From: Spirochaetota bacterium
GTDB taxonomy: Bacteria; Spirochaetota; UBA4802; UBA5550
Assembly: GCA_016929135.1 (NCBI GenBank)
Contig: JAFGJK010000142.1
Span: 2,059 to 66,058 of the forward strand
DNA length: 64,000 nucleotides
Direction of reading: 5' to 3'
Under the pieces are notes generated by a model. That model saw only the letters and a program-made list of their open reading frames with translations. It made no database searches and was not told the DNA's origin. Of the stretch, positions 33,359-54,756 are shown in pieces; the stretch's first letter is position 1, and every line of letters begins with the position of its first letter. Position numbers and translations under genes: made by a program.

Positions 33359-34273
33359 ATGAAAAAGATCGTACTTCTCTGTGTCACCGTGTTCATTTTA
33401 CTGGCATCTCTATCCATGGCACGGGCCGTTACCCTGAGCGTGGGGGGGAACCTCTGGTACAACTGGTGGATCCCGGCCTTCAAGGAGGGGAAGCTGGAAT
33501 CCATGGTATATGCCCCATCGGTGCCGTACCTGGCCTACCGGTTTTCCGACAGCAGGGACATCGGCTCCACCTCAACCGTCACCGGCGGTCCGGCCCTCTC
33601 GGTCAGGATCGACCGGTTCTCCCTCTCCACGGTGCTGGTCTACGCCAATTACAGGGTCAGGAACAACGGACTCACGAGGAGCCGCAATTATATTCTGTAC
33701 CCTGCATTGCCCGCCTCTGCCGCAGCGGCATATGTCGAATCATACCTCAGTATCAGGCGATGGGACAGCGATACCACCCTGAGCTATTCCCTCACCCCCG
33801 TGATGTCCCTGCTCCTGGGGCTGAAGGTCCAGAGCTACAGCCTGAAGAGCAGGACCGCCGACCTGGTTTCGGGTATCGTCAAGGCGTCCGATGACTTCAT
33901 CACCGTCGGTCCCGGTCTCGGTCTCGGCCTCACCATACCCCTGGTGTCCGACCTCTTCCTGATCTGCAACACTACCGTTTTCCTCCTCTGGAGCAGGCAG
34001 GAGGCATCGAAGAACATAATGGTGCCGTCGGGGGTCGTCATTTACTTTGACGACGGCAGCTACTTCGGCCTGGGAACCACCGTCATGGTTGCCGGTGCCT
34101 ACGTCCTCTCCTCGGTCAACACCACCCTGGCCCTGGGACTGCGTTACCAGCTGCTCTGGTACCGCAGTCTGGACGACCGTTCCGGCACCGTGAACGTCGA
34201 CCGGAAGATGGATCACAACTGTGGCATCACCTTATCGGCGATCTACACCTTCGATTTTTCAAATGATGATTGA
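33359..34273 (+). CDS. Secreted hypothetical protein, probable outer-membrane beta-barrel
   Basis: Signal peptide MKKIVLLCVTVFILLASLSMARA, alternating hydrophobic beta-strand pattern, aromatic-rich C-terminal strand (LSAIYTFDF). Confidence 0.6.
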   Translation: MKKIVLLCVTVFILLASLSMARAVTLSVGGNLWYNWWIPAFKEGKLESMVYAPSVPYLAYRFSDSRDIGSTSTVTGGPALSVRIDRFSLSTVLVYANYRVRNNGLTRSRNYILYPALPASAAAAYVESYLSIRRWDSDTTLSYSLTPVMSLLLGLKVQSYSLKSRTADLVSGIVKASDDFITVGPGLGLGLTIPLVSDLFLICNTTVFLLWSRQEASKNIMVPSGVVIYFDDGSYFGLGTTVMVAGAYVLSSVNTTLALGLRYQLLWYRSLDDRSGTVNVDRKMDHNCGITLSAIYTFDFSNDD

Positions 34274-34331
34274 AAAATAACGGGCGGATGCGATAATTGC
34301 CGGAAATAATCGAACATCGCGGAGGTTTTCA

Positions 34332-34689: not shown

Positions 34690-35421
34690 ATGAGGATACT
34701 TCTGTACATACCGTTCCCGGCGCTTCTGCTTGCCCTCCTGTGCCGGATATCCGCTCCCCCCGCGGCGGCGCAGCCGGCGGACATCACCGTGATCTCCTCG
34801 TTCACCACCTCCGTGGCAGAGCAGGACGACAATGTGAAGCGCAACATCCATCTGGCGTGCCTGAAGCTCCAGGGGGTCCAGATCGGCCCCGGGGAGCGCT
34901 TCTCTTTCAACGCCACCGTGGGGGAGGCGGGCGCCGCGCAGGGGTTCGTGGACGGCAGGGTGCTCTACATGGATACCGTGGTTTACGAGGCCGGGGGCGG
35001 CCTCTGCCAGGTGTCATCCACCCTGTACAACGCCATGCTCCTGGCGGGGTTTGCCATCGTCACGCGCCACCGCCACTTCCAGCCGGTGACCTACGTGCCG
35101 CCGGGGCTCGACGCCACCATCAAGTACGGGAAGAAGGACCTGGTGATGAGGAATCCCCATGACATGACGGTGCGCATCGACGCGGCGGTGGAGGGGGGGA
35201 GCCTCGTGGTGAAGCTCCTGGCGCCGCGGCCCCTGGGGTTCCAGTACGACATGGCCCTGGACGAGGAGGAGCTGGAGATCCCCTTCGCCCAGGAGGAGGA
35301 CGGATCGAGGATCAGAAACGGCCTGTCGGTCTACGTCTACCGGATAAAGATGCGGGACAGGAAGGTGCTGGAGCGGCAGCTCCTCTATAAAGACTACTAT
35401 CCCCCGGTGCGTTTCAGATGA
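34690..35421 (+). CDS. VanW-domain protein (secreted)
   Basis: Signal-like N-terminus, GERFSFNATVGE, GGGLCQVSSTLYNAMLLAGF, RHRH..PVTYVPPGLDATI, and DLVMRNP. Confidence 0.8.
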   Translation: MRILLYIPFPALLLALLCRISAPPAAAQPADITVISSFTTSVAEQDDNVKRNIHLACLKLQGVQIGPGERFSFNATVGEAGAAQGFVDGRVLYMDTVVYEAGGGLCQVSSTLYNAMLLAGFAIVTRHRHFQPVTYVPPGLDATIKYGKKDLVMRNPHDMTVRIDAAVEGGSLVVKLLAPRPLGFQYDMALDEEELEIPFAQEEDGSRIRNGLSVYVYRIKMRDRKVLERQLLYKDYYPPVRFR

Positions 35422-36035
35422 GGGGGGCGGTGCGATGCGCGGTCCTGGCCGCTGCCGTGTTCGCGGTGTTGTGCGGTCACGCCGATGTCGGCGATCCCCT
35501 GGAGCGGTGGCGCCGCTTCACCCGCACGCCGGGGGCGTCCGCCCTGCTGGGGTGGATGCGGTGCGCCGCGTCGCGGGAACTCGGGGGGGGGTGCCGCGCG
35601 GGGAGGATCCCGAAAACGCCCCCGGTATTCGGCCGCCTCGGGCTCTTCGTCACCGTGCTGAGGGGGCGGGAGGTCCGGGGATGCTACGGCGCCTTCGACC
35701 ACGGAAGCGGGGACCTCGCGGATCTCCTGCGGGAGTATCTGAAGGGCGCCCTGCGGCACGACGTCAGGCATTCGCCGGTGGAGCTCCAGGAGCTCGAACA
35801 GGTCAGGCTGGTGATCACCATCGCCGGGAGGCCCGAGCAGACGGACGATCTGGACGGGGTCGACCTCTCCACCCGCGGCCTCCTCATCGGCACCGATGAG
35901 GGGGGGGAGATGGTGTTCGTCCCCGCCGAGGTGCGCACCGTCGAACAGATCAGGAGGTCCCTCGGGGACAGGGCCATAACCCAGCTCTCCGCCTTCAGGG
36001 CGGTGACCATCCAGGAGAAGCGAGGTTCGCCATGA
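35418..36035 (+). CDS. AMMECR1-like domain protein with an N-terminal signal peptide
   Basis: GLFVTVLRGREVRGCYGAF matches the AMMECR1 LRGCIG core. It also has D.RHSPVELQELEQVRLVITI and GLLIGTDEGGEMVFVPAEV. The N-terminus AVLAAAVFAVLCGHA is signal-like. There are ATGA overlaps on both sides. Confidence 0.6.
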   Translation: MRGAVRCAVLAAAVFAVLCGHADVGDPLERWRRFTRTPGASALLGWMRCAASRELGGGCRAGRIPKTPPVFGRLGLFVTVLRGREVRGCYGAFDHGSGDLADLLREYLKGALRHDVRHSPVELQELEQVRLVITIAGRPEQTDDLDGVDLSTRGLLIGTDEGGEMVFVPAEVRTVEQIRRSLGDRAITQLSAFRAVTIQEKRGSP

Positions 36036-39000
36036 AGAGACAGATATCGACCGCCCTGTGTGTGATGATTGCCGCCGCGTGCGCCCTCTGCTGCAGCGGA
36101 ATACGCAGAGACATCCTGCAGGACGGCAGGGCCTTCTTCTCCGGACCGGCCACCCTGGTTCCGGAGCAGGAGACACTGAAGGGGCGAGTGCTGGACAGCA
36201 TCACCTCGAAGGGGATCGCCGGGGCGCAGGTGGAGATGAAGAACGCGAACCTGGGCGTGGGATACCACAAGGCCACCGCCGCGTCCGACGGCTCCTTCGT
36301 CATCGATGACTACATTCCACAGGTTCGCTATCACATCGCGGTGAGCGCCCCGGGATACGTGCCGCACCGGGGGTACCTCCAGTCCAACACCACCATCTAT
36401 CTCGATCCCCAGGCGGTGGTGCGCGGTACGGTGCGGGACTCCGCCGGCGTCCCGCTCCCCGGTGTGGAGGTGAAGCTCCGCTCCGGAGCGGGGCGCGGCG
36501 GCAACAACGATTCCGGTGAGGGCGGAGAGGGGAGGGGCGGCCACTCCTGCACCACCGACGCCCGGGGGGGGTACCGGTTCGATCAGCTGCGGAGCGGCGC
36601 GTATCTCATAACGTTCCGGAAGAGCGGCCATATCGAGGAGACCGCCAGGCTCGGCTCCGTTCTCCGTGGCGGCGAGCTGGACCTCCCCATGGTCCTCTAC
36701 CGCACCGCCTCGGTCTCGGGGAAGGTGCTGATCCAGGGGACCGGCGCACCGGCGGTGAACCTCACGGTGTCGCTCAAGGCCCAGGGCGTCCAGTACAGCG
36801 CAAGCACCTTCCAGGACGGCTCCTACTCCATCGACGACGTGCGGCCCGGCAGGTACGACCTGTACATCCAGCATCCGGGATTTCACCAGCTCCGGAAGGG
36901 CCCGGTGACCGTCACCGAGGGGCAGCGCATGCGGGGGATGGACTGGCAGGTGAAGGCAAAGGAGCCGGCCCTCTCTGTCTATGCCTACCGCTACACCTTC
37001 TCGCCGGTGAACAAGATCGAGTTCAACCTGCGCACCTTCCGCCTCGAGAAGGTGCGGGTGCGGATATACCGGGTGCCGCCGTCGGTCCTTTCGCACGGCA
37101 GGGGCGATCCCAACACCATGAGCCCCTCGGCGAGGGGATTCCATACGGTGAAGGAGTGGGACCAGCCGGTGAAGGATTTTCAGCCCTTCCAGTGGCAGTA
37201 CGGCACGATGGAGATGTCCGGTCCGCTGGCCACCGGCGGCTACTGCGTCGAGGTTTCGGCTTCGGACAGGCTCTTTGACCGCAAGTTCTTCACCGTCACC
37301 TCCGTGGGGGTGGTGGTGAAGCGGTCCCAGAGGACGGTGCTGGCCTACGTCACCAACCTGGTGAACAACGACCCGGTACGGGGGGCGAAGGTTGTCCTTT
37401 TCGACAACACCCCGGCCAAGGAGCGCCAGCGGCTGTCGGCCCGTCCGGTGAATCCCCCCCAGAGGATCGAGGACCTGCCGCTCAGGGTCCTCCACCGCGG
37501 CGAGACCGGAAGCGACGGCATCTACCGGCACGGGATAGAATCCTCGAGACACCTGTCGGTTCTGGTGGTGGGGGGCGACGGGAGCTACGCATTCTGCAAT
37601 ACCGGATCGCCCGACGTCTTCGACCGCGAGCTGAACAAGGTGATGGCCTACACCGACAGGCCGGTCTACCGCGTCGGCGACACGGTTCAGTTCAAGCTGA
37701 TGGGGAAGCGGCGCGACGACAGGAGCGTCCCCATCGCGGGGAGGAAGCTCTACATCATGATCCTCGACGCCACCGGGGGGATCGTGAAGCGCGGGAACGT
37801 CACTCTGGACGACTGGGGGAGCGCCAAGGGGTCGATACAGCTTTCCGGTGAGCCCAGGCTCGGGCGGTGGGACATCCGTGCCGGCCTCAATCCCAAATCG
37901 CTCGCCGGCGTCGGGCACTTTTACGTGGAGCAGTACCGGAAGCCGGAGTTCACCGTTGCAATCGAGCCCTCGAAGAAGTTCTTCGTCAACAACGAGACGG
38001 CGGAGTTCCGGGTCACCACGAAGTACCTCTTCGGCGCGCCCCTCAGGAACGCCGTGGTGAAGTACCGCTTCTACGAGTCGCGCCTAAGGGACACCGACAC
38101 CACCTACTGGTGGGAGGCGGATTACGGCGGGGGACAGAGCTACAACAGGATACGGCTCGAGGGGGACAAGACCACCGACGAGAACGGCACCGCCGTGCTC
38201 AGGCTCGAGTGCAAGAACCTACCTTACGACCGTGAGATCACCTGCGAGGCCACCGTGACCGACAGCTCCAACGTGAGCATCACCTCGCGGAAGGGTGTCC
38301 GCGTGGGGAGGGGGGAGTACTACATCAAGATCGAGCCCGCCAGGACCTTCTTCGTGAACAAGGACGTGAACCGCGTGACCCTCAGGACCGTGGACCACGC
38401 CGGCCGCCCGGTCCGGGAAAAAGTGGACCTGAAGGTGTACCGCTACATCTGGCGTCCACTGCAGATGGTCTATGTCCACGAGTCGCGCCCGGTGTATGAG
38501 AAGCGGGTGGAAACCGATGCACGGGGAAAGTTCCTGCTCACCCTCCCCGAGGTGGCGGCCACCGGCGAGTACGACATCGTGGCCGGGGGCTCCGACAGGT
38601 TCGGCAACCTGATCAGCGCCTCCAGGGTGGTGTGGATCTACGCGGGTCCCGGCGGCACGCTCGCCTCGAGGCTCAAGAACCTGGAGCTTTCGGTGGATCG
38701 TACCAGGCTCGACGGGCCGGGGGAGATCACCTGCCTGGTGAAGAGCCGCTTCCCCGACGCCACGGTCTGCCTGACCCTGGAGGGGCGCGACGTCTACGAG
38801 GCCAGGGTGGTGCGCCTGAAGGGGCACATGGCAACGGTGAATTTCACCATTAAGGACGCGTACGCCCCGAATCTCTACGTGAGCGCCATGGCCCAGGTGA
38901 ACCGGGGGCTCTACACCGCGAAGGCCGACGTGGCCCTCCCCAAGGGGGACACGAAGCTCCTCATCGCCATCGAGACCGACAAGGAGACCTACGGTCCCGG

Positions 39001-41377
39001 CGAGAAGGCCACGGTGACGCTCAGGGCGCGGGACGAGAAGGGGAACCCGGTACCGGCGGACATATCACTGGGGTGCGTCGACGAGGGGATCTACAGCGTC
39101 AGGCCGGACCACACGCCGTCCCTCATGGACTACTTCTACTCCAGGCTGGCGAATCTGGTGCTCACCGCCTATTCCTTCCCGGTGACGCTGCTGGCCGGCG
39201 CCATAAAGGACGTGATCGAGCAGGTGCGGGAGCGCTTCCGCGACACCGCCTTCTGGCAGCCGGATATCCGCACCGACGCCCGGGGGGTGGCGGTGGTCTC
39301 CTTCGACCTGCCGGACAACCTGACCACCTGGAGGCTTACCGCCCGGGGGCACGACAGGCACGGCAGGGTCGGCGAGGCGGTGAAGAAGGTCCTGGCGACA
39401 CAGGAGATGGTGGCCCGAATCGGCAGGCCCCGCTTCTTCATCGAGGGGGACAGGGTCGGCATCATCGGGATCGTCAACAGCAACTCCCCGCGGGGCCTTG
39501 AGAGGGTGACTGCGGAGATGAAGGTGAACGACAAGACCGTGGCGCCGGACCAGGCCATCGCCCTCTCCCTCCCCCCATTCGGGACCGCCAGGCAGTTCTA
39601 CACGGTAGCGGTGCCGGAGTCGCTCAAGGAGATGGTCCTCTTCTTCAAGGCCGGTGCCGACGCCAAGGCGCGCGACGCACTTCGGATCGCCGTGCCGGTG
39701 GAGCGCCGCGGCACCCCCTACAGCCTCTTTGCCCCCGGGGACCTGGATACAAACAGGACCGTGGCGCTCTCCCCGCTGGGGGACACCGATGATTTCGAGT
39801 ATCGCCCGGAATCCCTCCGCATCACCGTGAACCCGGGACCGCTGCAGCGGATGCTCAGGGCGGCGCGGTGGCTCCGGGGATACCGCTACGGCTGTGTGGA
39901 GCAGCTCCTCTCCAAGACGGTGCCGGTGATGGCGCTGAAGAGGCTGCTGTCGAATCGGGGGATGTCGCAGTACCTGAAGGACGACAAGCTGGAGGAGCGG
40001 CTGGGGAGGGCCCTGCGCAGAATCGAAAGCGCACAGAATGCCGACGGCACCTGGGGATGGTTCCCCTCGGGCGAGGCGAACATGGACGTCACCGCCTACG
40101 TGCTCCAGAACTTCAAGACCGTTTCCGATTTCGGTTTCAGGCGCGACGAGAATTCCGTACGCAGGGGGATCGAGGCGGTGAAGCGCGGGGCGCGCAACGG
40201 GATGATCAATCCCGACAGCAGGGCCTACTACCTCTACGTGGAGTCCCTCTGGAACGTCGGGGACCTGGACACCACCAGGGCGATCGCCGCCATGAAGGAT
40301 CAGAACCCCTACCGGCTGGCCATGCTGCTCCGGACCCTGACGCAGCTGAAGCGGAGCGGCAGGATCAGACCCGAGGAATACACGACCCTGGCCTCCTCCT
40401 GCGCGGAGCGGCTCAGGTCCATGATGAGGCGCGACGGGCGGGGCGTCTTCTGGGAAGCCACCGCGGACCAGGCCTACAGCTGGGCCGGCGGCAACACCGA
40501 GGTGTCCGCCGCGGTCCTCTCGGCGCTCCTGGAATCCGGCGACACCTCCGCAATACCGGCGCAGCTGGCGTCGTCCCTCTCGAGGCGGGGCTACATGGAG
40601 GCCTGGCGGTCCACCAGAGAGACCGCGGCGGCGATGATGGCCCTCTGCGGGTACCTGGGCAAGGCGCAGGGCCAGCTCTCGCCGTCGGGATCGGTGCGCT
40701 TCTCCCTGAACGGGAAGGACCTGGGGACGCTCCAGTACGGCGGGAGCAGGGATCCCTCGGATCTCACCCGGGTGATACCCCTGGGGGACATGAAGGCGGA
40801 GAAATATTCCGTCACGGCCGACGGCGGTGGGAGCGGCGTGAGCTTCGACTGCGTCATGGAGGGGCACCTCTACTTCGCGAGGAAGGGGATACTCTCCCTC
40901 TTCTCCTCCGAGGAGGGGGGGATCAGGAGCTTGGAAAACGGCGTGAGCCTCACCAGGACCTTCCACTCCATCGCCAGGGTGCGCGACGCCAACAACCGGG
41001 AGTACATGGTCCCCCAGCGTATATCAGAGAAGGGGCGCATCAAGGTGGGCGACGAGGTGATGGTGAAGGTCCGCTTCAGAGCCCAGGACGATTTCTCGTA
41101 TCTGGTGGTGGAGGACTACCTCCCCTCGGGCTTCGAGGTGGTGAAGACGGACGCCTACGGCGGCGGTGGGGACTACGCCCACCAGGAGCGGTGGGACGAC
41201 CGGATGCTCTTCTTCTTCTCGAAGGTGAGAAAGGGGACCATTTACGATGTGGCCTATATCATGAGGGCCGAGCTGCCGGGGAGCTTCTTCGTGAAGCCTG
41301 CGCGGGCCGAATGCATGTACGAGCCCTCGGTGCAGGGATGGTCCCGTGCCTCGGGCTTCCAGGTGCATGAGAAGTAG
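36032..41377 (+). CDS. Bacterial alpha-2-macroglobulin family protein, thioester type (1781 aa), probable lipoprotein
   Basis: The thioester motif GCVEQ has its Cys codon at 39893 (residue 1288). The N-terminus MIAAACALCCSG is signal- or lipobox-like. Three CarboxypepD_reg-like repeats are present (GRVLDS..GIAGAQVEM, VRGTVRDSAGVPLPGVEVKL and VSGKVLIQGTGAPAVNLTVSL). MG-domain-like repeats follow and the C-terminal region is A2M-like. Confidence 0.85.
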   Translation: MKRQISTALCVMIAAACALCCSGIRRDILQDGRAFFSGPATLVPEQETLKGRVLDSITSKGIAGAQVEMKNANLGVGYHKATAASDGSFVIDDYIPQVRYHIAVSAPGYVPHRGYLQSNTTIYLDPQAVVRGTVRDSAGVPLPGVEVKLRSGAGRGGNNDSGEGGEGRGGHSCTTDARGGYRFDQLRSGAYLITFRKSGHIEETARLGSVLRGGELDLPMVLYRTASVSGKVLIQGTGAPAVNLTVSLKAQGVQYSASTFQDGSYSIDDVRPGRYDLYIQHPGFHQLRKGPVTVTEGQRMRGMDWQVKAKEPALSVYAYRYTFSPVNKIEFNLRTFRLEKVRVRIYRVPPSVLSHGRGDPNTMSPSARGFHTVKEWDQPVKDFQPFQWQYGTMEMSGPLATGGYCVEVSASDRLFDRKFFTVTSVGVVVKRSQRTVLAYVTNLVNNDPVRGAKVVLFDNTPAKERQRLSARPVNPPQRIEDLPLRVLHRGETGSDGIYRHGIESSRHLSVLVVGGDGSYAFCNTGSPDVFDRELNKVMAYTDRPVYRVGDTVQFKLMGKRRDDRSVPIAGRKLYIMILDATGGIVKRGNVTLDDWGSAKGSIQLSGEPRLGRWDIRAGLNPKSLAGVGHFYVEQYRKPEFTVAIEPSKKFFVNNETAEFRVTTKYLFGAPLRNAVVKYRFYESRLRDTDTTYWWEADYGGGQSYNRIRLEGDKTTDENGTAVLRLECKNLPYDREITCEATVTDSSNVSITSRKGVRVGRGEYYIKIEPARTFFVNKDVNRVTLRTVDHAGRPVREKVDLKVYRYIWRPLQMVYVHESRPVYEKRVETDARGKFLLTLPEVAATGEYDIVAGGSDRFGNLISASRVVWIYAGPGGTLASRLKNLELSVDRTRLDGPGEITCLVKSRFPDATVCLTLEGRDVYEARVVRLKGHMATVNFTIKDAYAPNLYVSAMAQVNRGLYTAKADVALPKGDTKLLIAIETDKETYGPGEKATVTLRARDEKGNPVPADISLGCVDEGIYSVRPDHTPSLMDYFYSRLANLVLTAYSFPVTLLAGAIKDVIEQVRERFRDTAFWQPDIRTDARGVAVVSFDLPDNLTTWRLTARGHDRHGRVGEAVKKVLATQEMVARIGRPRFFIEGDRVGIIGIVNSNSPRGLERVTAEMKVNDKTVAPDQAIALSLPPFGTARQFYTVAVPESLKEMVLFFKAGADAKARDALRIAVPVERRGTPYSLFAPGDLDTNRTVALSPLGDTDDFEYRPESLRITVNPGPLQRMLRAARWLRGYRYGCVEQLLSKTVPVMALKRLLSNRGMSQYLKDDKLEERLGRALRRIESAQNADGTWGWFPSGEANMDVTAYVLQNFKTVSDFGFRRDENSVRRGIEAVKRGARNGMINPDSRAYYLYVESLWNVGDLDTTRAIAAMKDQNPYRLAMLLRTLTQLKRSGRIRPEEYTTLASSCAERLRSMMRRDGRGVFWEATADQAYSWAGGNTEVSAAVLSALLESGDTSAIPAQLASSLSRRGYMEAWRSTRETAAAMMALCGYLGKAQGQLSPSGSVRFSLNGKDLGTLQYGGSRDPSDLTRVIPLGDMKAEKYSVTADGGGSGVSFDCVMEGHLYFARKGILSLFSSEEGGIRSLENGVSLTRTFHSIARVRDANNREYMVPQRISEKGRIKVGDEVMVKVRFRAQDDFSYLVVEDYLPSGFEVVKTDAYGGGGDYAHQERWDDRMLFFFSKVRKGTIYDVAYIMRAELPGSFFVKPARAECMYEPSVQGWSRASGFQVHEK

Positions 41378-43457
41378 GTCTGCCGGGGGGGGCGCCCTCA
41401 GGTATCTCGCGGCAGCCGCGGTTCTCCTCTGCCTGCTCCCCGGCGCGCCCCTGGGGGGAACGGACCCCGCCGTGGTGACCCTGTCGATACTGTCGAAGCA
41501 GATCAGACTCGTCGGCGAGGGGAAGCTCGACGGAATCGGCATCGCGCTCCCCCATGATGCGGCGGTGACGGACCTCCTGCGGGGCGAGACCGTTCTGGGC
41601 GGCGAGCTCCGCCTGGTTTCCGCCGGAGGGGAGCCCCTCACCGCAGGGAGGGTCGTGCTCCTCCGGAACGGCAGCCCGGCGGGGGAGGGCTTCAGCATCC
41701 TGGTGCAGCGCCCCGGCGGGGAGATGGAGGTATCGTTCGCCGGCGAGACCAGGCGGTACCCGCTCCCGGCGCAGATCCGTTCGCGGGGGGGGGGCACCGA
41801 AGTCATCGTTACCGAGGAGGCGGCGCGCTACGCGGCCGATTCAGCCGCGGCCGAGTACGGAGCGCTGGGTCCGCACCACGGTGAGGCAATGAAGGCGCTG
41901 ACGATGCTGATATACGCGAAGGTTATCGATCCGAAAACCGGCCGGGCCCACGGCGACTGCGATTTCTGCGACCTGTCGCACTGTCAGGTGTACCGGGGCA
42001 GGACTGGTGCCGGTACGAATCCCATCCGCTGGTGGCCCCTTACGGGGGGGTACTTCTTCCACGCCCGCTGCGGCGGCAAAACGATGGGATGCGCCACCTT
42101 CGGCGGCGACGTCTCCGGAGAGGGAAACGCCCTCGGGGACGGCGACTGTACCTGCGTGCCGGTGAAATGTGCCGCGGTGGGCCACAAGGGCCCCCTCTGC
42201 GGCGGGGGCGAATGGAGCGCCTCGCTGGGAGAGGACGAACTGGCAGCGATACTCTTCGGAGGCTCGGCCTCCCCCCCGGCGATGATACGGCGCTACGATC
42301 GGGAGCGGATGCGCGTGGAGGTCTCCTCGGGAGACCGGACGGTGAGCTATCCCGCCGAGGGGTTCCGCCTTGCGGTGAACAGGGTGCGGGGCTGGAGCTT
42401 CATCGCCAGCAACAACTACAGCGTTACCGAGGAGACCCGGACGGGGAGGAGGATCTACACCTTCAGGGGCAGGGGCCTGGGGCACGGGGTGGGACTGTGC
42501 CAGGAGGGGGCGAAGACCCTGGCCGGCATGGGTTATTCGGCGGTGGAGATATTGGAGCACTACTTCCCCGGCTCGCAGTGGCGCGGGGCCGCCGCGGCGG
42601 AATCCCCCACCCCGTATCTCTCCTATGTACTCTTCTCGCTGGAGGACGGCTCGGTGGAATTCATGAGCTATCCCCGTTTCGCCGGGCGGCGCGTCCCCCC
42701 GGGATCCCTCTTCAAGGTGTTGGTTTCCATCTACCTGGCGCTGCACCGGCCCGACCTCCTGGAGCGGTATCGCCACGTCTGCACCGGCGCCGAGGAGGAG
42801 GGGGGGCTCCCCGCCTGCTGGTACCGCCGAGGTCACGGGGAGATCGCCTTCCGGGAGGCCCTGTCGAAGTCGTGCAACCGGTACTTCGCGTCGCTGTGCC
42901 GGCAGATTGACCGGGAGGAATTCGCGCGCCGGATCAATGTCCTGTTCCTGGAGCTGGGGATGCAGTGCCGCTGCCCCGTGCCGGCGAACGACAGGGATTT
43001 CGCGGCCATGCTCTGCGGCACCGATTTTCGCATGAGAATCTCCGTGGAGGATATCATGATCCTGGCCGGGCTTCTGGGGACTGGCGGCCGCTCCGGCGGC
43101 GCCATTGCGCGGGTCCGGCAGACCATCCCGCAGCGGCACCTGGCGCTGATCAGGGAGGCCCTGATGCGGAACATTACGGAGGGGACAGGCTCGGGGGAGG
43201 CGCACCCCTTCGGGCCGGAGCTGAACTACCGTGATCTTCTGGGCCCGGTGCCGGCTGAGGACGCGGTGCTGCGCGGCGTCATGTGGGGGAAGACCGCCAC
43301 GGTGGTGGACGGGCCTGTGGGCGACAGGAGCTACGGCATCTTCATGGGGGGCTTCAGGGGGACCGGCATCGTGGTGCTGCTCTCCCGGGGGAACGGTCAC
43401 CTGGCGGCCCAATGGGCCAGGAGGATCATGGCCGCCCGCGTCCTGCCGCACCACTAG
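41367..43457 (+). CDS. SpoIID/LytB-domain :: penicillin-binding transpeptidase-like fusion protein
   Basis: The N-terminal half is SpoIID-like: HGEAMKALTMLIYAKV, DFCDLSHCQVYRG, FFHARCGGKT, and RGRGLGHGVGLCQEGAKTLAGMGYSAVEILEHYFPGS. The C-terminal half carries the PBP motifs SLFK (SxxK, 42705-42716), SCN (SxN) and KTA(T). ATG 41367 lies 8 nt before the A2M stop; 41346 is an alternative start. Confidence 0.75.
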   Translation: MRSRSAGGGALRYLAAAAVLLCLLPGAPLGGTDPAVVTLSILSKQIRLVGEGKLDGIGIALPHDAAVTDLLRGETVLGGELRLVSAGGEPLTAGRVVLLRNGSPAGEGFSILVQRPGGEMEVSFAGETRRYPLPAQIRSRGGGTEVIVTEEAARYAADSAAAEYGALGPHHGEAMKALTMLIYAKVIDPKTGRAHGDCDFCDLSHCQVYRGRTGAGTNPIRWWPLTGGYFFHARCGGKTMGCATFGGDVSGEGNALGDGDCTCVPVKCAAVGHKGPLCGGGEWSASLGEDELAAILFGGSASPPAMIRRYDRERMRVEVSSGDRTVSYPAEGFRLAVNRVRGWSFIASNNYSVTEETRTGRRIYTFRGRGLGHGVGLCQEGAKTLAGMGYSAVEILEHYFPGSQWRGAAAAESPTPYLSYVLFSLEDGSVEFMSYPRFAGRRVPPGSLFKVLVSIYLALHRPDLLERYRHVCTGAEEEGGLPACWYRRGHGEIAFREALSKSCNRYFASLCRQIDREEFARRINVLFLELGMQCRCPVPANDRDFAAMLCGTDFRMRISVEDIMILAGLLGTGGRSGGAIARVRQTIPQRHLALIREALMRNITEGTGSGEAHPFGPELNYRDLLGPVPAEDAVLRGVMWGKTATVVDGPVGDRSYGIFMGGFRGTGIVVLLSRGNGHLAAQWARRIMAARVLPHH

Positions 43458-49476: not shown

Positions 49477-52400
49477 TTATCCGAAGTAATCGAGGACCAG
49501 CATGGTCACGTCGTCTTCCTGGCTTTCGTTCCCCGTGTACACCGCCAACTCCCGCAGTAGGTTGTCGCACATCGCGTCTGGGTCCGGGGACCGCTCGGAA
49601 ATTCCCCTGATCCACGAGAAGAACCAGTCGGTGTCCAGGCCCAGCATCCGCCCCTCGGGATTGATGGTGTCTATTATACCGTCCGTGTACATCAGTATCC
49701 TGTCCCCCCTCTCCAGGCGGGCCGTTACGTTGGTGGAACCGGGCTCGAAGTAGTCGTATATCATCCTGCCGGGGGCCCTGATGAAACGGGTGTCGCCGCT
49801 CCTGTTGATGACGATGCAGGGGGGGTGCCCCGCGCTCGCCGTGGTGAGGGTCCCCCGCCTGAGGTCGATCGCGCAGATGCAGGCGGTGATGAAGTTCCCC
49901 CCCAGCTTCCCCCGCAGGGCGCTCTGGATCTTCGCGATCATGAGGGCAGGGTCTCTGAGGTGCTCGTCCCAGAGGAAGTCCAGCGTGGTGCTCAGGGTCG
50001 AGGAGGTCATGGCGGCGGGTATGCCGTGTCCCGAAACGTCCGAGATGAACAGCCCCAGCATTCCCGATTCCGTGCCGTGCACGATGTTCACGTAGTCGCC
50101 GCCGACGATGCTCATGGGCTTGTAGCGGTAGGCGATGGCGATGTCGTCTATCAGCGGAAGGACCCGGGGGAGCAGGGCCTCCTGAATCGTCTTCGCCATC
50201 TCGATCTCGCTTTTCAGGATGGCGTTTTTCTTTTCGCGCTCGAGAAAGAGGGCGTTGTTGATGGAGATTGCGCACTGCGACATCATGATGGAGAGGAACT
50301 CGAGCCTCTCTGGCGTGAAGATGCCCGCCGCCAGGTTGTTCTCCAGGTAGAGGAAGCCGCTGATGCCCCCCCTGTCGTTTATGGAAAGACAGAGTATGGA
50401 TTTCGACGCGTCCTTCACAATACGCGGGTCCTCCATGAACATCCCCGAGGCGGAGGCGTTGTCCAGTATGACGCTCTCGCCGGTACGCCGCACGTAGTTC
50501 ACCACGGATTCAGGCATGTCCATCCTGTCGCTGGGCGGCCCGACGGTGATCCTGAAGCTCCCCTCCCTGTCGGCGTGTGCCTCTGTGTAGAGCGTTGGCG
50601 TCGGTTCCTGGCTCGTGGCGACGCTCTCTGCGACGATCAGGGGTCTCCCCTCGCTGTAGATGCAGAGGATGCCCCTCCTGGCCCCCGCGTTTTCGACGGC
50701 GATCCGTATGATGATCCGCAGCAGGTTTTCCAGCACCATCTCGCGGGATACCGCCTGTGAGAGCTTCACCACTGCGTCCAGGTCGAGCCGCCTGGATGTG
50801 CCGTCGGTACTGGATGGATCCTGGGACGACGGATTGTGCAGGCCGATGCGGCCCAGGATCTCGCCGTAGCGTTTTCGCAGGTGGGCGGCCTTCGCCTTCG
50901 CCCCCCACTTGTCGTACAGGTAGGCCGCCTCCTCCAGGTAGGATGACGCGCTGCGCCCGCTCCCGAGCCGTATGAGGAAGCGGGCCGCGAGCTCGTTTGC
51001 CAGCGCCGCATAACGCGAGAAACCGCTCTCGATGGCCGCGTCTATGGAACGGTCGTAGCATTCAATCGTCTCCCGGATTCTGCCGGATATCCTGAGGGTC
51101 TCGGCTTCCATGAGGTACCGGTGATGGAGAAAATTTTCCCGGCAGTTGTCGGTCCATGCGCGCATCATCCGGTATTCCCGCCGCATCCTGGCCCTCGCCG
51201 AAAGCCGTGCCGCCGGACTGAGATTATCGTGGTTCAGCGAGGAGGCAAGGAATGAATGGATGCAGAACTCGGCCGACGATGGCGTCCCGACGATGGCCCA
51301 CCGGATCCGGTCGATCTCCCTGACGTGGCGCGGCGCCTCGGCGTAGCGTTCGAAGAGAATCGACAGCTGGAGCTTTGCCAAGTGAAAACCCGCAACACCG
51401 GTATTGTAACCGGCATCTTTCATCCTGGCGAGGCACGACTCCTCGTCGAAGCCGTCGCCGTCGAGGGACCTGGTGTCGGGGGTCGCGCCCTGGAGCGTCT
51501 GCCAGAGGCGGAGGAAGATCATCGCCCTGTCCCTGACGTCCTGGTAGTTGGCGCTTTCGATGATGCCCAGATAGTGCGAGCTGAGCCGCACCGCCTCGGC
51601 GAGATCGATCTGCGGGTCCCACTGGGGGATGCAGTAGCAGGCGAGGGAGGTATAGGTGAGGTCCCCCGACTGGAGCCCGGCGTCCACTGCGTAGTGGAGG
51701 TATGCCGGCATGGTCTTCCAGTGTTCGTTCCAGCCGTGTATGAAGACGCTGTAATTGAACAGGATGCGGCAGCGGATCTCCAGGTCGTTGAACTGTTCGT
51801 TCAGCATCACCCCGGTCTTTCCGAACTCGTAGGAATCCCGCAGTCTGCCGAAGTACCCGGCAAGTATGGCCCCGTAGGTGGTGTAGGCGTACGCCGATTC
51901 CGGGCTGTTGCCGTGGCAAAGCGAGATGTTCACCTGCTTCATGTTCGTCACCACCATGAGGTTCGGGTTGCCCGAGAGGTACGCCGGCGGCCCCAGCTCC
52001 ATCAGTATCCTCATGGAGAGCTTTTTCTCCGGATCGGTGAGTAGCGGGGCCTTCACGATGTCGGCGATGTCCCTCCCGCGCATGTTCCTTTTCGCCTGGA
52101 GGATCTCCCGCAGTATCGCAAGCTTCGAGGGCCTCTTCTTTACCCGTATCCCCAAAAGCGCCAGCCCCCTGATGCCCGCATTGATAGCCTCGTCGAGCTT
52201 CCCCCGCACGGTGTACTGCACCGCCTGCATTCTCAGAATGCGCGCCCGCTCGTAGACGGTACGCGACCGTTCCATGAGCAGAGAGATGATCTCCTCGGCA
52301 CGCCGGAACTCGCCGCAGAGGTAGGCCGCCTGGGAAAGCTCGCTGTGGAGTTCGAAGGTGAGATCGTACTGCTCCTCCCAGGGATTATCCTTCAGGAAGC

Positions 52401-54756
52401 CGATGCCCTTCATGACGTACTGCAGCGCCGGCTGATACGCCGTGGAGAGGCGGGCCCGAATCGCCGCGGCAAGGTTCAGCCTGGCGGCAGCCTCACGCTC
52501 CTGTTCGCCGGTGATAAGTTCGCTCGCCTCGTTCAGATGGTGGGCGATGCGGATCGTCAGGTCGTCCCGCTCTTCTGTCTCGGCGAATCGAAGCATGAGC
52601 CTGCCGATGGTCAGGTGCAGCCGCGGGCGATCCTCCTCACCCACCATGGAATATGCCGCCTGCTGGACCCTGTCATGCTGGAATCGGAAGGTCACGTCGA
52701 AATCAGCCGTCTGTCCCTCCATCCAGGGGGAGGCGCTCAGCATCAGGCGGTATCTGTCGTCCAGCGGGTATATCACCTCCTGCCGCGCCGCCTCCCAGAG
52801 GGCTTCGGCCGCGGCGGCCGGCGTCGTTTCGGAGATGACGGAGAGTGTCTTCAGATCGAAGAAGTTGCCCATGCAGGAGGCCAGTTGGAGCATTTTCAGC
52901 GTCCGGTCCGGCAGGCACTTCAGCTTGTCGATCATGAACTCGATGACGTTGTCGCTGATCTCCTGTGAGCCGATCCGTTCCGGGTTCCACTGCCATCGCC
53001 GATCGTCGTAGGAGAAGGAGAGCCAGCCTTCGCGGTAGAGCCTTTTCAGGAATTCCACCGTGAAGAAGGGATTCCCCTCGGTCTTTCTGTAGACCATTTC
53101 GGTCAGGGGGAGGGAGTGGTGCGTATCGCAGGTGATGGCGTCGGCGATATACCGGTTGACGGTGCCGCGGTCCAGGGGATTCAGCGACAGGGTATCCAGA
53201 ATTCCCGCCTTTCCGGTTTCGGTCAGCAGGAGGAGCAGGGGATGCCCCTCGCGAACCTCGTTGTCACGGTATGCACCGATGATCAGCATGCTCCGCAGAC
53301 CACGGGTCAGGAGCAGCCTCTGGATCAGGTTCAGGGAGGGCGGGTCGCTCCACTGGAGGTCGTCGAGGAAGATCACCAGAGGGTGATCCTCCCGCGCGAA
53401 GATGGAGATGAAGTTCCGCAGGGTGATGATGAAGCGGTTTTCAGATTCCGCCGGATTCACCTGCGGCAGCTTCGGCTGGGGCCCGATGATCGACACGAGC
53501 TCAGGTACCATGTCGGTCATGATGCTTCCGTTGGGGCCCAGCGCCTCAACGAGAAGGTCCCTCCAGACGGCCAGGCGGCTCTCGGACTCCGAGAGGAGCT
53601 GCCTGGTAAGATCCCGGAAGGCCTGGGCCAGGGCGCTGTAGGGATCGTTCCGGTGGTACTGATCGAATTTACCGGCGATGAAGTATCCCTTTTTCTCGGT
53701 AACGGGCCTGTGTATCTCCCCCACCAGGGCCGATTTCCCCACGCCCGCGTAACCCGAGATGGCCAGAAGACGAGCCGGTCCGGCGATGGTTCTGTGGAAG
53801 CAGTTGAGTATCTCCCCCACCTCTCCGTCGCGTCCGTAGAGACGCTGCGGCAGCCTGAAGGTGTCCGGGACATCCTGCTCGCCGGGAGCGAAGTATTCGA
53901 TCCCGCCATCGCGGAGAAGGTCGCGGCAGCGCTCGAGATCGGAGAGGATACCGGCGGTGCTCTGGTACCGGTCTTCCTGGTTTTTCGCCATGAGCTTCAT
54001 TATGATGTCTGACAGGGCCTTCGGAATATTGCTTGCCAGCTCGTGCGGCGGCATCGGCATCCTTGCGATATGTGAGTGGACCATTTCCATCGTGTCGCTC
54101 CCCTGGAAGGGGAGGAAGCCCATGAGTATCTGATAGAAGGTGATTCCCAAAGAGTAGAAGTCGCTCCTGTAGTCCACGGTGCGGTTCATCCGGCCGGTCT
54201 GCTCCGGCGACATGTAGGCCAGCGTCCCCTCGAATCTCCCCGGATTGAGCATCGAGGGATTCTCCTTGGTGAGCCGGCTGGATATGCTGAAGTCAATGAG
54301 GCGCAGTCGGTCGTCGCTCCTGTTCCAGATAAGGTTTGCCGGCTTCATGTCCTTGTAGATGACGCCGTTCTTGTGTATGCCGCTCAGGATTTTTGTGATT
54401 CGTATCGCCAGGTCCAGAAAGATATCGATCCTGTGCGATATGAGGTGTATCTGGCGGCGTAGGGATTCACCGCCGATGTCCTCCATCGCCATGAAGAGGG
54501 TGTTCCTGACATGCCTGAGCTCCAGAACCTGTATCACGCCATCGACGTTGAGACTGCTGATGATATGGAATTCGTGGTTGAGACGCGCCACCTCCTCCTG
54601 CGAGGGATAGGAGGCCTTCAGCATCTTCAGGACGGCGGGGTGCCTGTCACGGTCCCTGAGGCCGCGGTATACCACCGAATGCTGGCTTTCATAAACCTTT
54701 TCTGTGACCGTGTATTCGGGTAATCGTATCATTTCATGCGCTTTATCTCCCGTCAC
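49477..54756 (-). CDS. Multidomain signalling protein: Ser/Thr protein kinase - AAA_16 (STAND) ATPase - TPR-like region - GAF - PP2C/SpoIIE phosphatase (1759 aa)
   Basis: The kinase has AVLKMLK, YKDMKPANLIW, IDFSIS and YMSPEQ. The Walker A motif is GYAGVGKSALVGEI. A long helical/TPR-like middle region follows, then a GAF-like segment. The C-terminal SpoIIE region has GGDYVNIV, FISDVSGHGIPAA, ASAGHPP, MYTDGIID and EDDVTMLVL. Confidence 0.9.
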   Translation of the reverse strand: MTGDKAHEMIRLPEYTVTEKVYESQHSVVYRGLRDRDRHPAVLKMLKASYPSQEEVARLNHEFHIISSLNVDGVIQVLELRHVRNTLFMAMEDIGGESLRRQIHLISHRIDIFLDLAIRITKILSGIHKNGVIYKDMKPANLIWNRSDDRLRLIDFSISSRLTKENPSMLNPGRFEGTLAYMSPEQTGRMNRTVDYRSDFYSLGITFYQILMGFLPFQGSDTMEMVHSHIARMPMPPHELASNIPKALSDIIMKLMAKNQEDRYQSTAGILSDLERCRDLLRDGGIEYFAPGEQDVPDTFRLPQRLYGRDGEVGEILNCFHRTIAGPARLLAISGYAGVGKSALVGEIHRPVTEKKGYFIAGKFDQYHRNDPYSALAQAFRDLTRQLLSESESRLAVWRDLLVEALGPNGSIMTDMVPELVSIIGPQPKLPQVNPAESENRFIITLRNFISIFAREDHPLVIFLDDLQWSDPPSLNLIQRLLLTRGLRSMLIIGAYRDNEVREGHPLLLLLTETGKAGILDTLSLNPLDRGTVNRYIADAITCDTHHSLPLTEMVYRKTEGNPFFTVEFLKRLYREGWLSFSYDDRRWQWNPERIGSQEISDNVIEFMIDKLKCLPDRTLKMLQLASCMGNFFDLKTLSVISETTPAAAAEALWEAARQEVIYPLDDRYRLMLSASPWMEGQTADFDVTFRFQHDRVQQAAYSMVGEEDRPRLHLTIGRLMLRFAETEERDDLTIRIAHHLNEASELITGEQEREAAARLNLAAAIRARLSTAYQPALQYVMKGIGFLKDNPWEEQYDLTFELHSELSQAAYLCGEFRRAEEIISLLMERSRTVYERARILRMQAVQYTVRGKLDEAINAGIRGLALLGIRVKKRPSKLAILREILQAKRNMRGRDIADIVKAPLLTDPEKKLSMRILMELGPPAYLSGNPNLMVVTNMKQVNISLCHGNSPESAYAYTTYGAILAGYFGRLRDSYEFGKTGVMLNEQFNDLEIRCRILFNYSVFIHGWNEHWKTMPAYLHYAVDAGLQSGDLTYTSLACYCIPQWDPQIDLAEAVRLSSHYLGIIESANYQDVRDRAMIFLRLWQTLQGATPDTRSLDGDGFDEESCLARMKDAGYNTGVAGFHLAKLQLSILFERYAEAPRHVREIDRIRWAIVGTPSSAEFCIHSFLASSLNHDNLSPAARLSARARMRREYRMMRAWTDNCRENFLHHRYLMEAETLRISGRIRETIECYDRSIDAAIESGFSRYAALANELAARFLIRLGSGRSASSYLEEAAYLYDKWGAKAKAAHLRKRYGEILGRIGLHNPSSQDPSSTDGTSRRLDLDAVVKLSQAVSREMVLENLLRIIIRIAVENAGARRGILCIYSEGRPLIVAESVATSQEPTPTLYTEAHADREGSFRITVGPPSDRMDMPESVVNYVRRTGESVILDNASASGMFMEDPRIVKDASKSILCLSINDRGGISGFLYLENNLAAGIFTPERLEFLSIMMSQCAISINNALFLEREKKNAILKSEIEMAKTIQEALLPRVLPLIDDIAIAYRYKPMSIVGGDYVNIVHGTESGMLGLFISDVSGHGIPAAMTSSTLSTTLDFLWDEHLRDPALMIAKIQSALRGKLGGNFITACICAIDLRRGTLTTASAGHPPCIVINRSGDTRFIRAPGRMIYDYFEPGSTNVTARLERGDRILMYTDGIIDTINPEGRMLGLDTDWFFSWIRGISERSPDPDAMCDNLLRELAVYTGNESQEDDVTMLVLDYFG

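Follow-up and report, generated by a model that had tools for sequence, protein, structure and literature searches.

A stretch of 64,000 nucleotides (nt) of a Spirochaetota genome (assembly GCA_016929135.1, contig JAFGJK010000142.1, positions 2,059 to 66,058 of the forward strand; hereafter the window) carries, as the last gene of a four-gene operon, an open reading frame (ORF) in which a SpoIID/LytB-type domain is fused to a transpeptidase (TP) domain of the penicillin-binding protein (PBP) type. The gene (41367..43457, + strand) runs as one ORF of 696 amino acids from an ATG at 41367 to a stop codon that ends at 43457, and it shares its first 11 nt with the end of the upstream gene, which encodes an alpha-2-macroglobulin (A2M) of 1781 residues. 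We propose, from the sequence and the models built on it, that the product is a secreted or periplasmic two-domain peptidoglycan enzyme, with the SpoIID part forming the N-terminal two-thirds and the TP domain the C-terminal third. Most likely it would serve as a remodelling or repair enzyme for peptidoglycan beside A2M and a VanW-domain protein, in envelope defence and repair. By its residues it would be a catalytically intact, domain-permuted relative of TP–SpoIID proteins that are found beside A2M in other phyla. We put the probability of this explanation at about 0.6, a figure that covers the whole of it, that is the enzyme, the remodelling or repair role at the side of A2M and the relation to the Escherichia coli protein YfaQ.

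The polypeptide opens with a predicted signal peptide or membrane anchor (residues 1–31, 41367..41459), which is inferred from the sequence and coincides with a hydrophobic helix at residues 9–23 of an AlphaFold2 (AF2) model. A beta-rich region follows (residues 35–150, 41469..41816; strands between residues 36 and 151 in the AF2 model) and leads into the SpoIID/LytB catalytic region (residues ∼ 150–405, 41815..42581), assigned by profile, hhalign and Foldseek. The two together make up a SpoIID/LytB-type domain of about residues 35–405. The beta-rich region is shared with stand-alone SpoIID-like proteins of ∼ 390 residues, in which profile positions 5–394 are matched. The remainder (residues ∼ 415–696, 42609..43454) is a TP domain of the PBP2/SpoVD type with the penicillin-binding fold, assigned by PDB matches, Foldseek and hhalign, and it lacks the pedestal domain.

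The fusion is a real family and no assembly error. A search of 5.8 billion proteins returned ∼ 40 full-length homologues with 33–42% identity and 94–98% coverage, from NCBI, JGI, ENA and Logan assemblies; the named ones are Spirochaetes (metagenome-assembled genomes, MAGs). Exhaustive HMMER searching of 1.84 billion cluster representatives gave ∼ 48 full-length clusters (at 50% identity) of the same SpoIID-then-TP architecture. A database entry from a Spirochaetes MAG, annotated as hypothetical, has the identical sequence. An earlier reading of the window from its letters and ORFs (the sequence-only reading) had proposed a SpoIID domain followed by a PBP-type domain, and had allowed that two separate genes might have been merged by an assembly error. 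The domains and their order are upheld by the profile, PDB and structure matches described below. As for a merger, the fusion is not an assembly artefact, because the ∼ 40 homologues from independent assemblies keep both domains; a chimera is refuted by these many independent full-length sequences. That the fusion reflects two genes joined by an assembly or frameshift error, or that its PBP motifs are there by chance, is therefore vanishingly improbable. Other phyla do have TP and SpoIID as separate genes, but these stand in the opposite order, whereas the full-length homologues share one continuous architecture; the profile E-values (1e-14 and 5e-11) and a predicted TM-score (pTM) of 0.86 also speak against it.

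Domain assignment of the fusion protein

As a single sequence the window protein is hard to classify with curated libraries. The sole Pfam match is PF00905, whose score of 16.7 bits misses the cut-off of 22.1; the SpoIID model (PF08486) has no match at E <= 0.01. NCBIfam SpoIID_LytB (TIGR02669) reaches 55 bits against a cut-off of 83.3, over the C-terminal part of the domain only, and pbp2_mrdA reaches 39 bits. The window protein is therefore a divergent member, for which a family alignment was needed. This alignment (A1) holds 35 full-length homologues and is the basis of the profile and of the conservation counts given here. Most of the homologues carry a precomputed PF00905 match.

A PDB sequence search with the single protein found the TP domain of Clostridioides difficile PBP3 (7rd0, E 8.8e-7), in which PPGSVFK pairs with PPGSLFK of the window protein and SNSCN with SKSCN. 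It also found the TP domains of Campylobacter jejuni PBP2 (8yjx) and of SpoVD (7rcz), again from C. difficile. The same search matched the SpoIID structures 5i1t (E 8.6e-4), 5txu and 4rwr over the segment GLGHGVGLCQEGA. With the A1 profile the E-value for 7rd0 is 1.4e-14 and SpoVD is matched over profile positions 430–633; the SpoIID structures 4rwr, 5i1t and 5txu are matched over ∼ 240 residues at E 5e-11 to 6e-10 (4rwr, 5e-11).

The next-best relatives of the window protein are fusions of reverse order (TP–SpoIID), each of which passes both Pfam models. Twenty-four of them form a second alignment, A2. The SpoIID part of the spirochaete family aligns by hhalign with the Pfam-positive SpoIID domains of these proteins at E 3e-45, and the TP part with their Pfam-positive TP domains at E 1.5e-35 over 250 columns.

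The AF2 model computed on A1 has a mean predicted local distance difference test (pLDDT) of 85.7 and a pTM of 0.86, the latter indicating one compact two-domain model. Foldseek with the full-length model returned class B PBP transpeptidase domains with a probability of 1.00, and SpoIID structures ranked beneath the PBP matches listed. With a model of the N-terminal part only (residues 1–415), which was built from nine sequences and is poor (pLDDT 66), the sole significant matches were the SpoIID structures 5i1t and 4rwr, with probabilities of 1.00 and 0.99 but TM-scores of 0.22–0.33.

The dimerization or pedestal domain of class B PBPs (PF03717) gave no match in the fusion protein in the Pfam scan; its place is occupied by the SpoIID domain. 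Strictly speaking, the fusion is thus no class B PBP but the bearer of the TP domain of one. In class B PBPs the pedestal couples the enzyme to SEDS glycan polymerases, and the fusion offers a natural example of a class B TP domain with neither a pedestal nor a SEDS partner. It is probably a new type of penicillin-binding protein in spirochaetes.

Active-site and metal-binding residues

E163, in the motif AEYG (41853..41855), is the glutamate predicted to be catalytic in the SpoIID domain; it is invariant in all 35 members and aligns by hhalign with the Glu of the 'YvagVv..E....EALKAQA' motif of the Pfam-positive relatives. In Bacillus subtilis SpoIID the catalytic Glu is E88. The equivalent residue of C. 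difficile SpoIID, E101, is essential (PMC6221140). A putative Zn site lies in HGDCDFCDLSHC (41949..41984), where H195, C201, H205 and C206 are kept in 33, 34, 32 and 34 of the 35 members respectively. It is similar in pattern to H134/C140/H145/C146, which form the Zn site in SpoIID of C. difficile (PMC6221140), although the Cys-to-His spacing is one residue shorter in the fusion; 'DLSHCQVY' aligns with 'DYKHCQEY'. The C-terminal SpoIID signature, GLGHGVGLCQEGA (42474..42512), aligns to GYGHGVGMSQWGA of 5i1t. G372, H373, G376 and G381 are invariant, and the family form of the signature, GHGVG.CQ.GA, is conserved in A1. The fusion hence shares with SpoIID of B. subtilis, C. difficile and B. anthracis (5i1t, 5txu, 4rwr) the catalytic Glu, DxxHCQxY and GHGVGxxQxGA, and has an H/C/H/C Zn-type motif like that of the C. 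difficile protein. It differs from them in belonging to a non-sporulating spirochaete, in its predicted secretion, in its longer N-terminal beta region, in the attached PBP domain and in having no SpoIIP or SpoIIM partner nearby.

In the TP domain the SxxK motif, S447-L-F-K450 (42705..42716), is predicted to provide the acyl-serine nucleophile and the general base; neither S447 nor K450 varies (35/35). The SxN motif, S502-C503-N504 (42870..42878), is invariant in A1 and aligns to the SCN of 7rd0. Both pairs, S447/K450 and S502/N504, have their exact counterparts in the alignments with 7rd0, 8yjx and 7rcz. The KTG-equivalent, K642-T643-A644 (43290..43298), sits at the start of a beta-strand (residues 640–648 in the model). 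Its Lys and Thr are invariant; at the third position 19 of the 35 members have Ser, 13 have Ala and 3 have Gly, so that the family motif reads KT[S/A/G]. In the alignment with the reverse-order fusions, the TP domain of which matches PF00905 nearly end to end, KT[S/A] is paired with KTGT.

SLFK, SCN and KTA were all found where the sequence-only reading had placed them, and its interpretation of the SxxK and SxN strings as PBP active-site motifs is borne out by the profile alignment to 7rd0 and to the Pfam-positive relatives; the lack of structural equivalence that it had considered did not emerge. Its comparison of GKTAT with KTG holds in part: the string aligns to KTGT and keeps the invariant Lys and Thr, but the Gly is not retained.

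Four further residues of the TP domain, C472, C484, H490 and C503 (the X of SxN; span 42780..42875), are invariant in all 35 members and form a putative Zn tetrad. C. difficile PBP3 and SpoVD bind Zn through Cys, Cys, His and the Cys of SXN (PMC9334274), and in Acinetobacter baumannii PBP2 the tetrad lies at +24, +39, +45 and +58 from the catalytic Ser (PMC9974482). The offsets in the fusion, +25, +37, +43 and +56, are close to those of A. baumannii PBP2. Each domain of the fusion thus appears to carry a structural Zn site of its own, both sites being putative. Compared with the Zn-binding class B PBPs (7rd0, 7rcz, 8yjx and A. baumannii PBP2), the group that it matches best in sequence and in fold, the fusion has SxxK, SCN, the KTG-equivalent strand and the Cys/Cys/His/Cys tetrad at similar spacing; it lacks the pedestal and a SEDS partner gene, has KT[S/A/G] and carries its TP domain C-terminal to SpoIID. 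The reverse-order fusions of A2 likewise keep SxxK, SCN, KTGT, the two upstream Cys, the catalytic Glu and a C..THC motif.

At 33–42% identity, catalytic and metal-binding residues that are invariant or nearly so are the signature of selection for catalysis, and both domains display the conservation that would be expected of active enzymes.

The sequence-only reading had also described a Cys- and Gly-rich insert in the SpoIID part. A stretch of this composition exists (residues 245–282, 42099..42212), and pLDDT falls below 50 at residues 249–260. It is however not a conserved insert, since no family member lacks the segment and SpoIID itself has it, with the family consensus GVRDWL..G..LC......W against AADYWGNDYPYL.KSVDSPW in 4rwr. 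The window protein is 7–11 residues longer than the family here and locally divergent; only C278 (32/35) and W283 are conserved in the region, and residue 268 (42168..42170) is Cys where 34 of the 35 members have Asp or Glu, in the GVRDW motif. The loop is lineage-specific and no defining feature of the family. A frameshift was considered as its origin and rejected, as the other reading frames show no family motif and no better match.

The macroglobulin operon in spirochaetes and other phyla

In the window the fusion gene closes an operon of four genes, VanW, AMMECR1, A2M and fusion, in which the stop of each gene overlaps the start of the next. All four products start with signal-like hydrophobic peptides. 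The first gene (34690..35421, +) encodes a VanW-domain protein of 243 amino acids with a signal peptide (PF04294, 144 bits), which carries GGGLCQVSS with its Cys at 35005..35007. VanW domains have been shown to be LD-transpeptidases (LDTs) that need tetrapeptide donors (PMC11348318). The second gene (35418..36035, +) encodes an AMMECR1-domain protein of 205 amino acids (PF01871, 53.5 bits) that begins with a signal-like peptide. Proteins of the AMMECR1 family, to which no function has been assigned, usually reside in the cytoplasm; one with a signal-like peptide in a cell-envelope operon is unexpected.

The A2M gene (36032..41377, +) encodes 1781 amino acids with Pfam matches to CarboxypepD_reg, MG2, the bait region, A2M, TED and bMG10. 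Its thioester motif, CVEQ within GCVEQ, is at residues 1288–1291 (39893..39904, +). A lipoprotein-like signal (…AAACALCCSG) opens the protein, and its first ∼ 300 residues, ahead of the MG domains, hold three CarboxypepD_reg-like repeats; spirochaete A2M homologues have the same N-terminal extension. Pfam found no GT51/PBP1c gene among the operon genes scanned. Downstream of the fusion lie GrpB and other genes with no relation to the cell wall.

The arrangement recurs in other spirochaetes. The VanW–AMMECR1–A2M–fusion cluster is found in six further lineages (loci L001, L005, L006, L007, L012 and L092) with differing outer flanks, and in three more (L002, L013, L093) A2M stands upstream of the fusion while the flanks are otherwise different. 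In all, A2M lies within ∼ 5 kb upstream of the fusion in 9 of the 11 lineages examined. Several of the loci also have a small gene for a LapA_dom (PF06305) membrane protein between A2M and the fusion (L001, 9736..9951; L005, 9749..9991; L006, 9764..9991; L093, 9656..9871), which is absent from the window, where the A2M and fusion genes overlap.

We scanned a genome collection with SpoIID-derived patterns only, and sought A2M near the resulting loci by tblastn with the operon proteins of the window. The scan is not a census of the family: the matches listed include just three close relatives, beside numerous SpoIID proteins of a generic kind. Of 80 SpoIID-type loci, 27 lie within 10 kb of an A2M homologue, which is far above chance for a single-copy gene. 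The A2M-linked loci include most of the best-scoring ones listed, from Acidobacteriota, Elusimicrobia, WOR-3, Melainabacteria and Cyanobacteria. The A2M thioester motif CxEQ is present in spirochaete and other loci alike (L001, L007, L064, L066, L081).

Three of these settings illustrate how the modules are dealt out. In Acidobacteriota (L018) a TP–SpoIID fusion follows A2M. In WOR-3 (L064, 4480..11777) a DUF1175/MagC-like gene, A2M (GCAEQ), a stand-alone TP of 315 amino acids and a SpoIID protein of 354 amino acids stand together; this locus mixes traits of both known A2M operon types, I and II (see the next section). In Melainabacteria (L066, L081) AMMECR1, A2M and VanW lie on one strand, and TP (308–312 amino acids) followed by SpoIID (396–413 amino acids) on the other, so that the five modules of the window operon are conserved in at least two phyla. 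Across Spirochaetota, Melainabacteria/Cyanobacteriota, WOR-3, Acidobacteriota and Elusimicrobiota, the phyla in which we saw A2M with TP/SpoIID modules, the latter occur as separate genes, as a TP–SpoIID fusion or, in spirochaetes, as SpoIID–TP, and VanW and a secreted AMMECR1 join them in two phyla. In the spirochaete version SpoIID and TP are fused in that order.

The reverse-order fusions (annotated 'SpoIID/LytB domain-containing protein') and the split pairs are the nearest relatives of both domains and often lie beside A2M; they differ in having the order reversed or the genes separate, and many have an additional C-terminal tail. In 15 of the 24 A2 members this tail bears an HExxH-x(17-19)-W..EG motif, which is missing from the window family. 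The tail looks like an MA-clan metallopeptidase. It is also found in SpoIID proteins of ∼ 500–680 amino acids beside A2M, mostly from Acidobacteriota; the tailed loci are L014–L023, L025, L033, L041 and L046, in addition to the A2 members.

Relation to known A2M operons, YfaQ and proposed function

Bacterial A2Ms are thought to be a primitive periplasmic immune system and, to our knowledge, are always encoded with cell-wall proteins, either PBP1c or the Mag proteins. We know of no assigned function for most of the Mag partners, including the DUF2300 protein YfaQ/MagE. Two operon types have been described: in type I a thioester A2M is paired with PBP1c, for which 'defence plus repair' was proposed, and in type II an A2M without thioester belongs to a six-gene mag operon (PMC4498604; PMC5764988).

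The operon in the window conforms to neither. Its fusion adjoins a thioester A2M and therefore holds the place that PBP1c has in enterobacteria. The sequence-only reading had said as much, naming the fusion as the replacement of PBP1C in its partnership with A2M, and the synteny supports it: a thioester A2M is immediately upstream here and within ∼ 5 kb in most lineages, and the operon has no GT51/PBP1c gene. Like PBP1c, the fusion would combine in a single wall enzyme a domain that acts on glycan and another that acts on peptide, next to a lipoprotein-type A2M with CxEQ (YfhM/ECAM in enterobacteria). Unlike PBP1c, it has a SpoIID-type cutter in place of the GT51 polymerase, a TP domain of class B type and VanW and AMMECR1 as partners; the gene adjacent to A2M is the SpoIID–TP fusion and not pbpC. 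From the type II (Mag/Yfa) operons the window operon differs in that its A2M has a thioester and its partners are VanW and AMMECR1, not MagB (DUF2138), MagC (DUF1175) or MagA/F; DUF1175 occurs only in the WOR-3 version. The locus represents a third type of A2M operon, in which a fusion of a predicted glycan cutter and peptide transferase with intact catalytic residues is joined by a protein of an LD-transpeptidase family.

A link to the type II operons is provided by YfaQ of E. coli K-12 (b2226; L091, 6149..7798, − strand), a 'tandem DUF2300' protein encoded directly 3′ of the A2M pseudogene yfaS. With the Pfam SpoIID model YfaQ scores 27 bits, above the cut-off of 23. Its N-terminal end can be aligned to the stretch of A1 from SxxK to SxN (87%, E 3.9e-6), and it is collinear with the TP–SpoIID profile A2 (hhalign 95.4%, E 1.7e-8, 283 columns). 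It keeps SLWK (PLGSLWK) and the SpoIID Glu, has SCG for SCN, has lost the His of the Zn tetrad and ends in HEYLH. Pfam found DUF2300 in none of the 24 A2 members nor in the window protein; the link rests on hhalign, the Pfam SpoIID match, the gene position and the shared HExxH tail. YfaQ thus looks like a degenerate TP–SpoIID(–HExxH) protein. It shares with the fusion a gene directly downstream of A2M, a TP-like part, N-terminal in YfaQ, and a SpoIID-like part; it differs in its opposite domain order, partly degenerate active sites, C-terminal HExxH and an A2M without thioester. We infer that YfaQ is the equivalent of MagE from gene position, size and COG (PMC3735191), not from the MagE sequence.

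The state of YfaQ bears on whether the fusion is an enzyme at all. It might instead be a non-catalytic peptidoglycan-binding adaptor that tethers or stabilizes an A2M complex, as proposed for the pseudo-enzyme MagC and conceivable for YfaQ/MagE. YfaQ has lost the SxN Asn and the Zn-tetrad His, yet its gene is kept beside A2M, and MagD levels fall when MagE is lost (PMC5764988). In the SpoIID–TP family, on the other hand, the catalytic and metal-binding residues of both domains are invariant or nearly so, and the reverse-order fusions likewise retain theirs. For the spirochaete protein we regard an adaptor role as improbable.

On the reading that we prefer, of an active two-domain enzyme, family precedent would make the SpoIID domain a lytic transglycosylase acting on peptide-stripped glycan strands, and the TP motifs suggest a stand-alone acyl-serine transferase of PBP2/SpoVD type acting on D-Ala-D-Ala stem peptides; both assignments are parts of the explanation graded as a whole above. 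Foreign proteases or wall-degrading enzymes would enter the periplasm, where A2M would trap the proteases and the wall enzymes of the operon would then handle the damage. The SpoIID domain would bind and trim denuded or broken glycan strands, and the attached TP domain would re-cross-link neighbouring pentapeptides or trim them to tetrapeptides, which VanW could convert into 3-3 cross-links. Such a role would fit the protection that the mag operon gives Pseudomonas aeruginosa against peptidoglycan-targeting type VI secretion effectors (PMC12663445).

How the two activities would be divided is the subject of a variant of this model. Here the TP domain would be a DD-carboxypeptidase or endopeptidase that trims pentapeptides for VanW, the SpoIID domain would mainly target the protein to glycan, and the outcome would be 3-3 cross-links insensitive to beta-lactams. 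The TP domain stands alone, with no pedestal or SEDS-coupling domain, and VanW is co-encoded in the spirochaete clusters and in Melainabacteria. LDTs require tetrapeptide donors and PBPs use pentapeptides, according to PMC11348318 and PMC13344953, and the KT[S/A] variant may tilt the domain towards hydrolysis. Against this, the nearest relatives of the TP domain are true transpeptidases (PBP2/MrdA, SpoVD and C. difficile PBP3) and not low-molecular-weight carboxypeptidases, and the invariant Glu and the Zn motif of the SpoIID domain argue for more than a targeting module. We consider the variant plausible but rather unlikely.

Several observations weigh against a remodelling and repair enzyme in partnership with A2M. 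The window protein falls below the curated Pfam and NCBIfam cut-offs for both domains. Ser or Ala stands where nearly all PBPs have Gly in KTG, which could alter or abolish acylation, and the near-invariant Asp268 of the SpoIID part is lost in the window protein. With the pedestal absent, genuine cross-linking of nascent strands is not implied. The operon encodes no amidase, and the known activity of SpoIID requires the partner amidase SpoIIP (PMC6221140). Two of the 11 lineages (L003/L004 and L011) have no A2M within 10 kb of the fusion. Finally, MagE has been reported to be cytoplasmic, not periplasmic (PMC3735191).

A broader proposal can be put forward tentatively, at somewhat less than even odds: the A2Ms of several phyla may travel with PBP2-type TP and SpoIID modules as a hitherto undescribed periplasmic system that would trap the attacker and mend the wall, with YfaQ/MagE of E. 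coli and P. aeruginosa as its degenerate descendant. The locus would then point to the ancestry of YfaQ/MagE and, if that is true, give the first functional handle on this Mag component. The recurrence of the modules beside A2M in split and permuted form makes 'defence plus wall repair' directly testable with defined enzymes.

The combination had been called unusual and not previously described in the sequence-only reading. This stands in so far as our literature search found no paper linking SpoIID-type proteins with macroglobulins, a proteome list apart; the combination is not unique, since databases hold reverse-order TP–SpoIID proteins from other phyla. A further search, swamped by the cancer gene family MAGE, listed no paper that contains DUF2300 or YfaQ. 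The fused architecture, the VanW/AMMECR1/A2M/SpoIID–TP operon and the link to YfaQ appear to be undescribed, whereas both domains and the theme of A2M with a wall enzyme are known.

A scan for terminators found none 3′ of the fusion gene. A sigma-70-like site (34270..34297, +; TTGAAA-16-GATAAT with an extended TG) lies ∼ 390 nt 5′ of the VanW gene and is no better than chance over the scanned region. Elsewhere in the window, a gene at 49477..54756 (− strand) encodes a multidomain signalling protein of 1759 amino acids with a Ser/Thr kinase, an AAA_16 ATPase, a GAF domain and a SpoIIE-type PP2C phosphatase.

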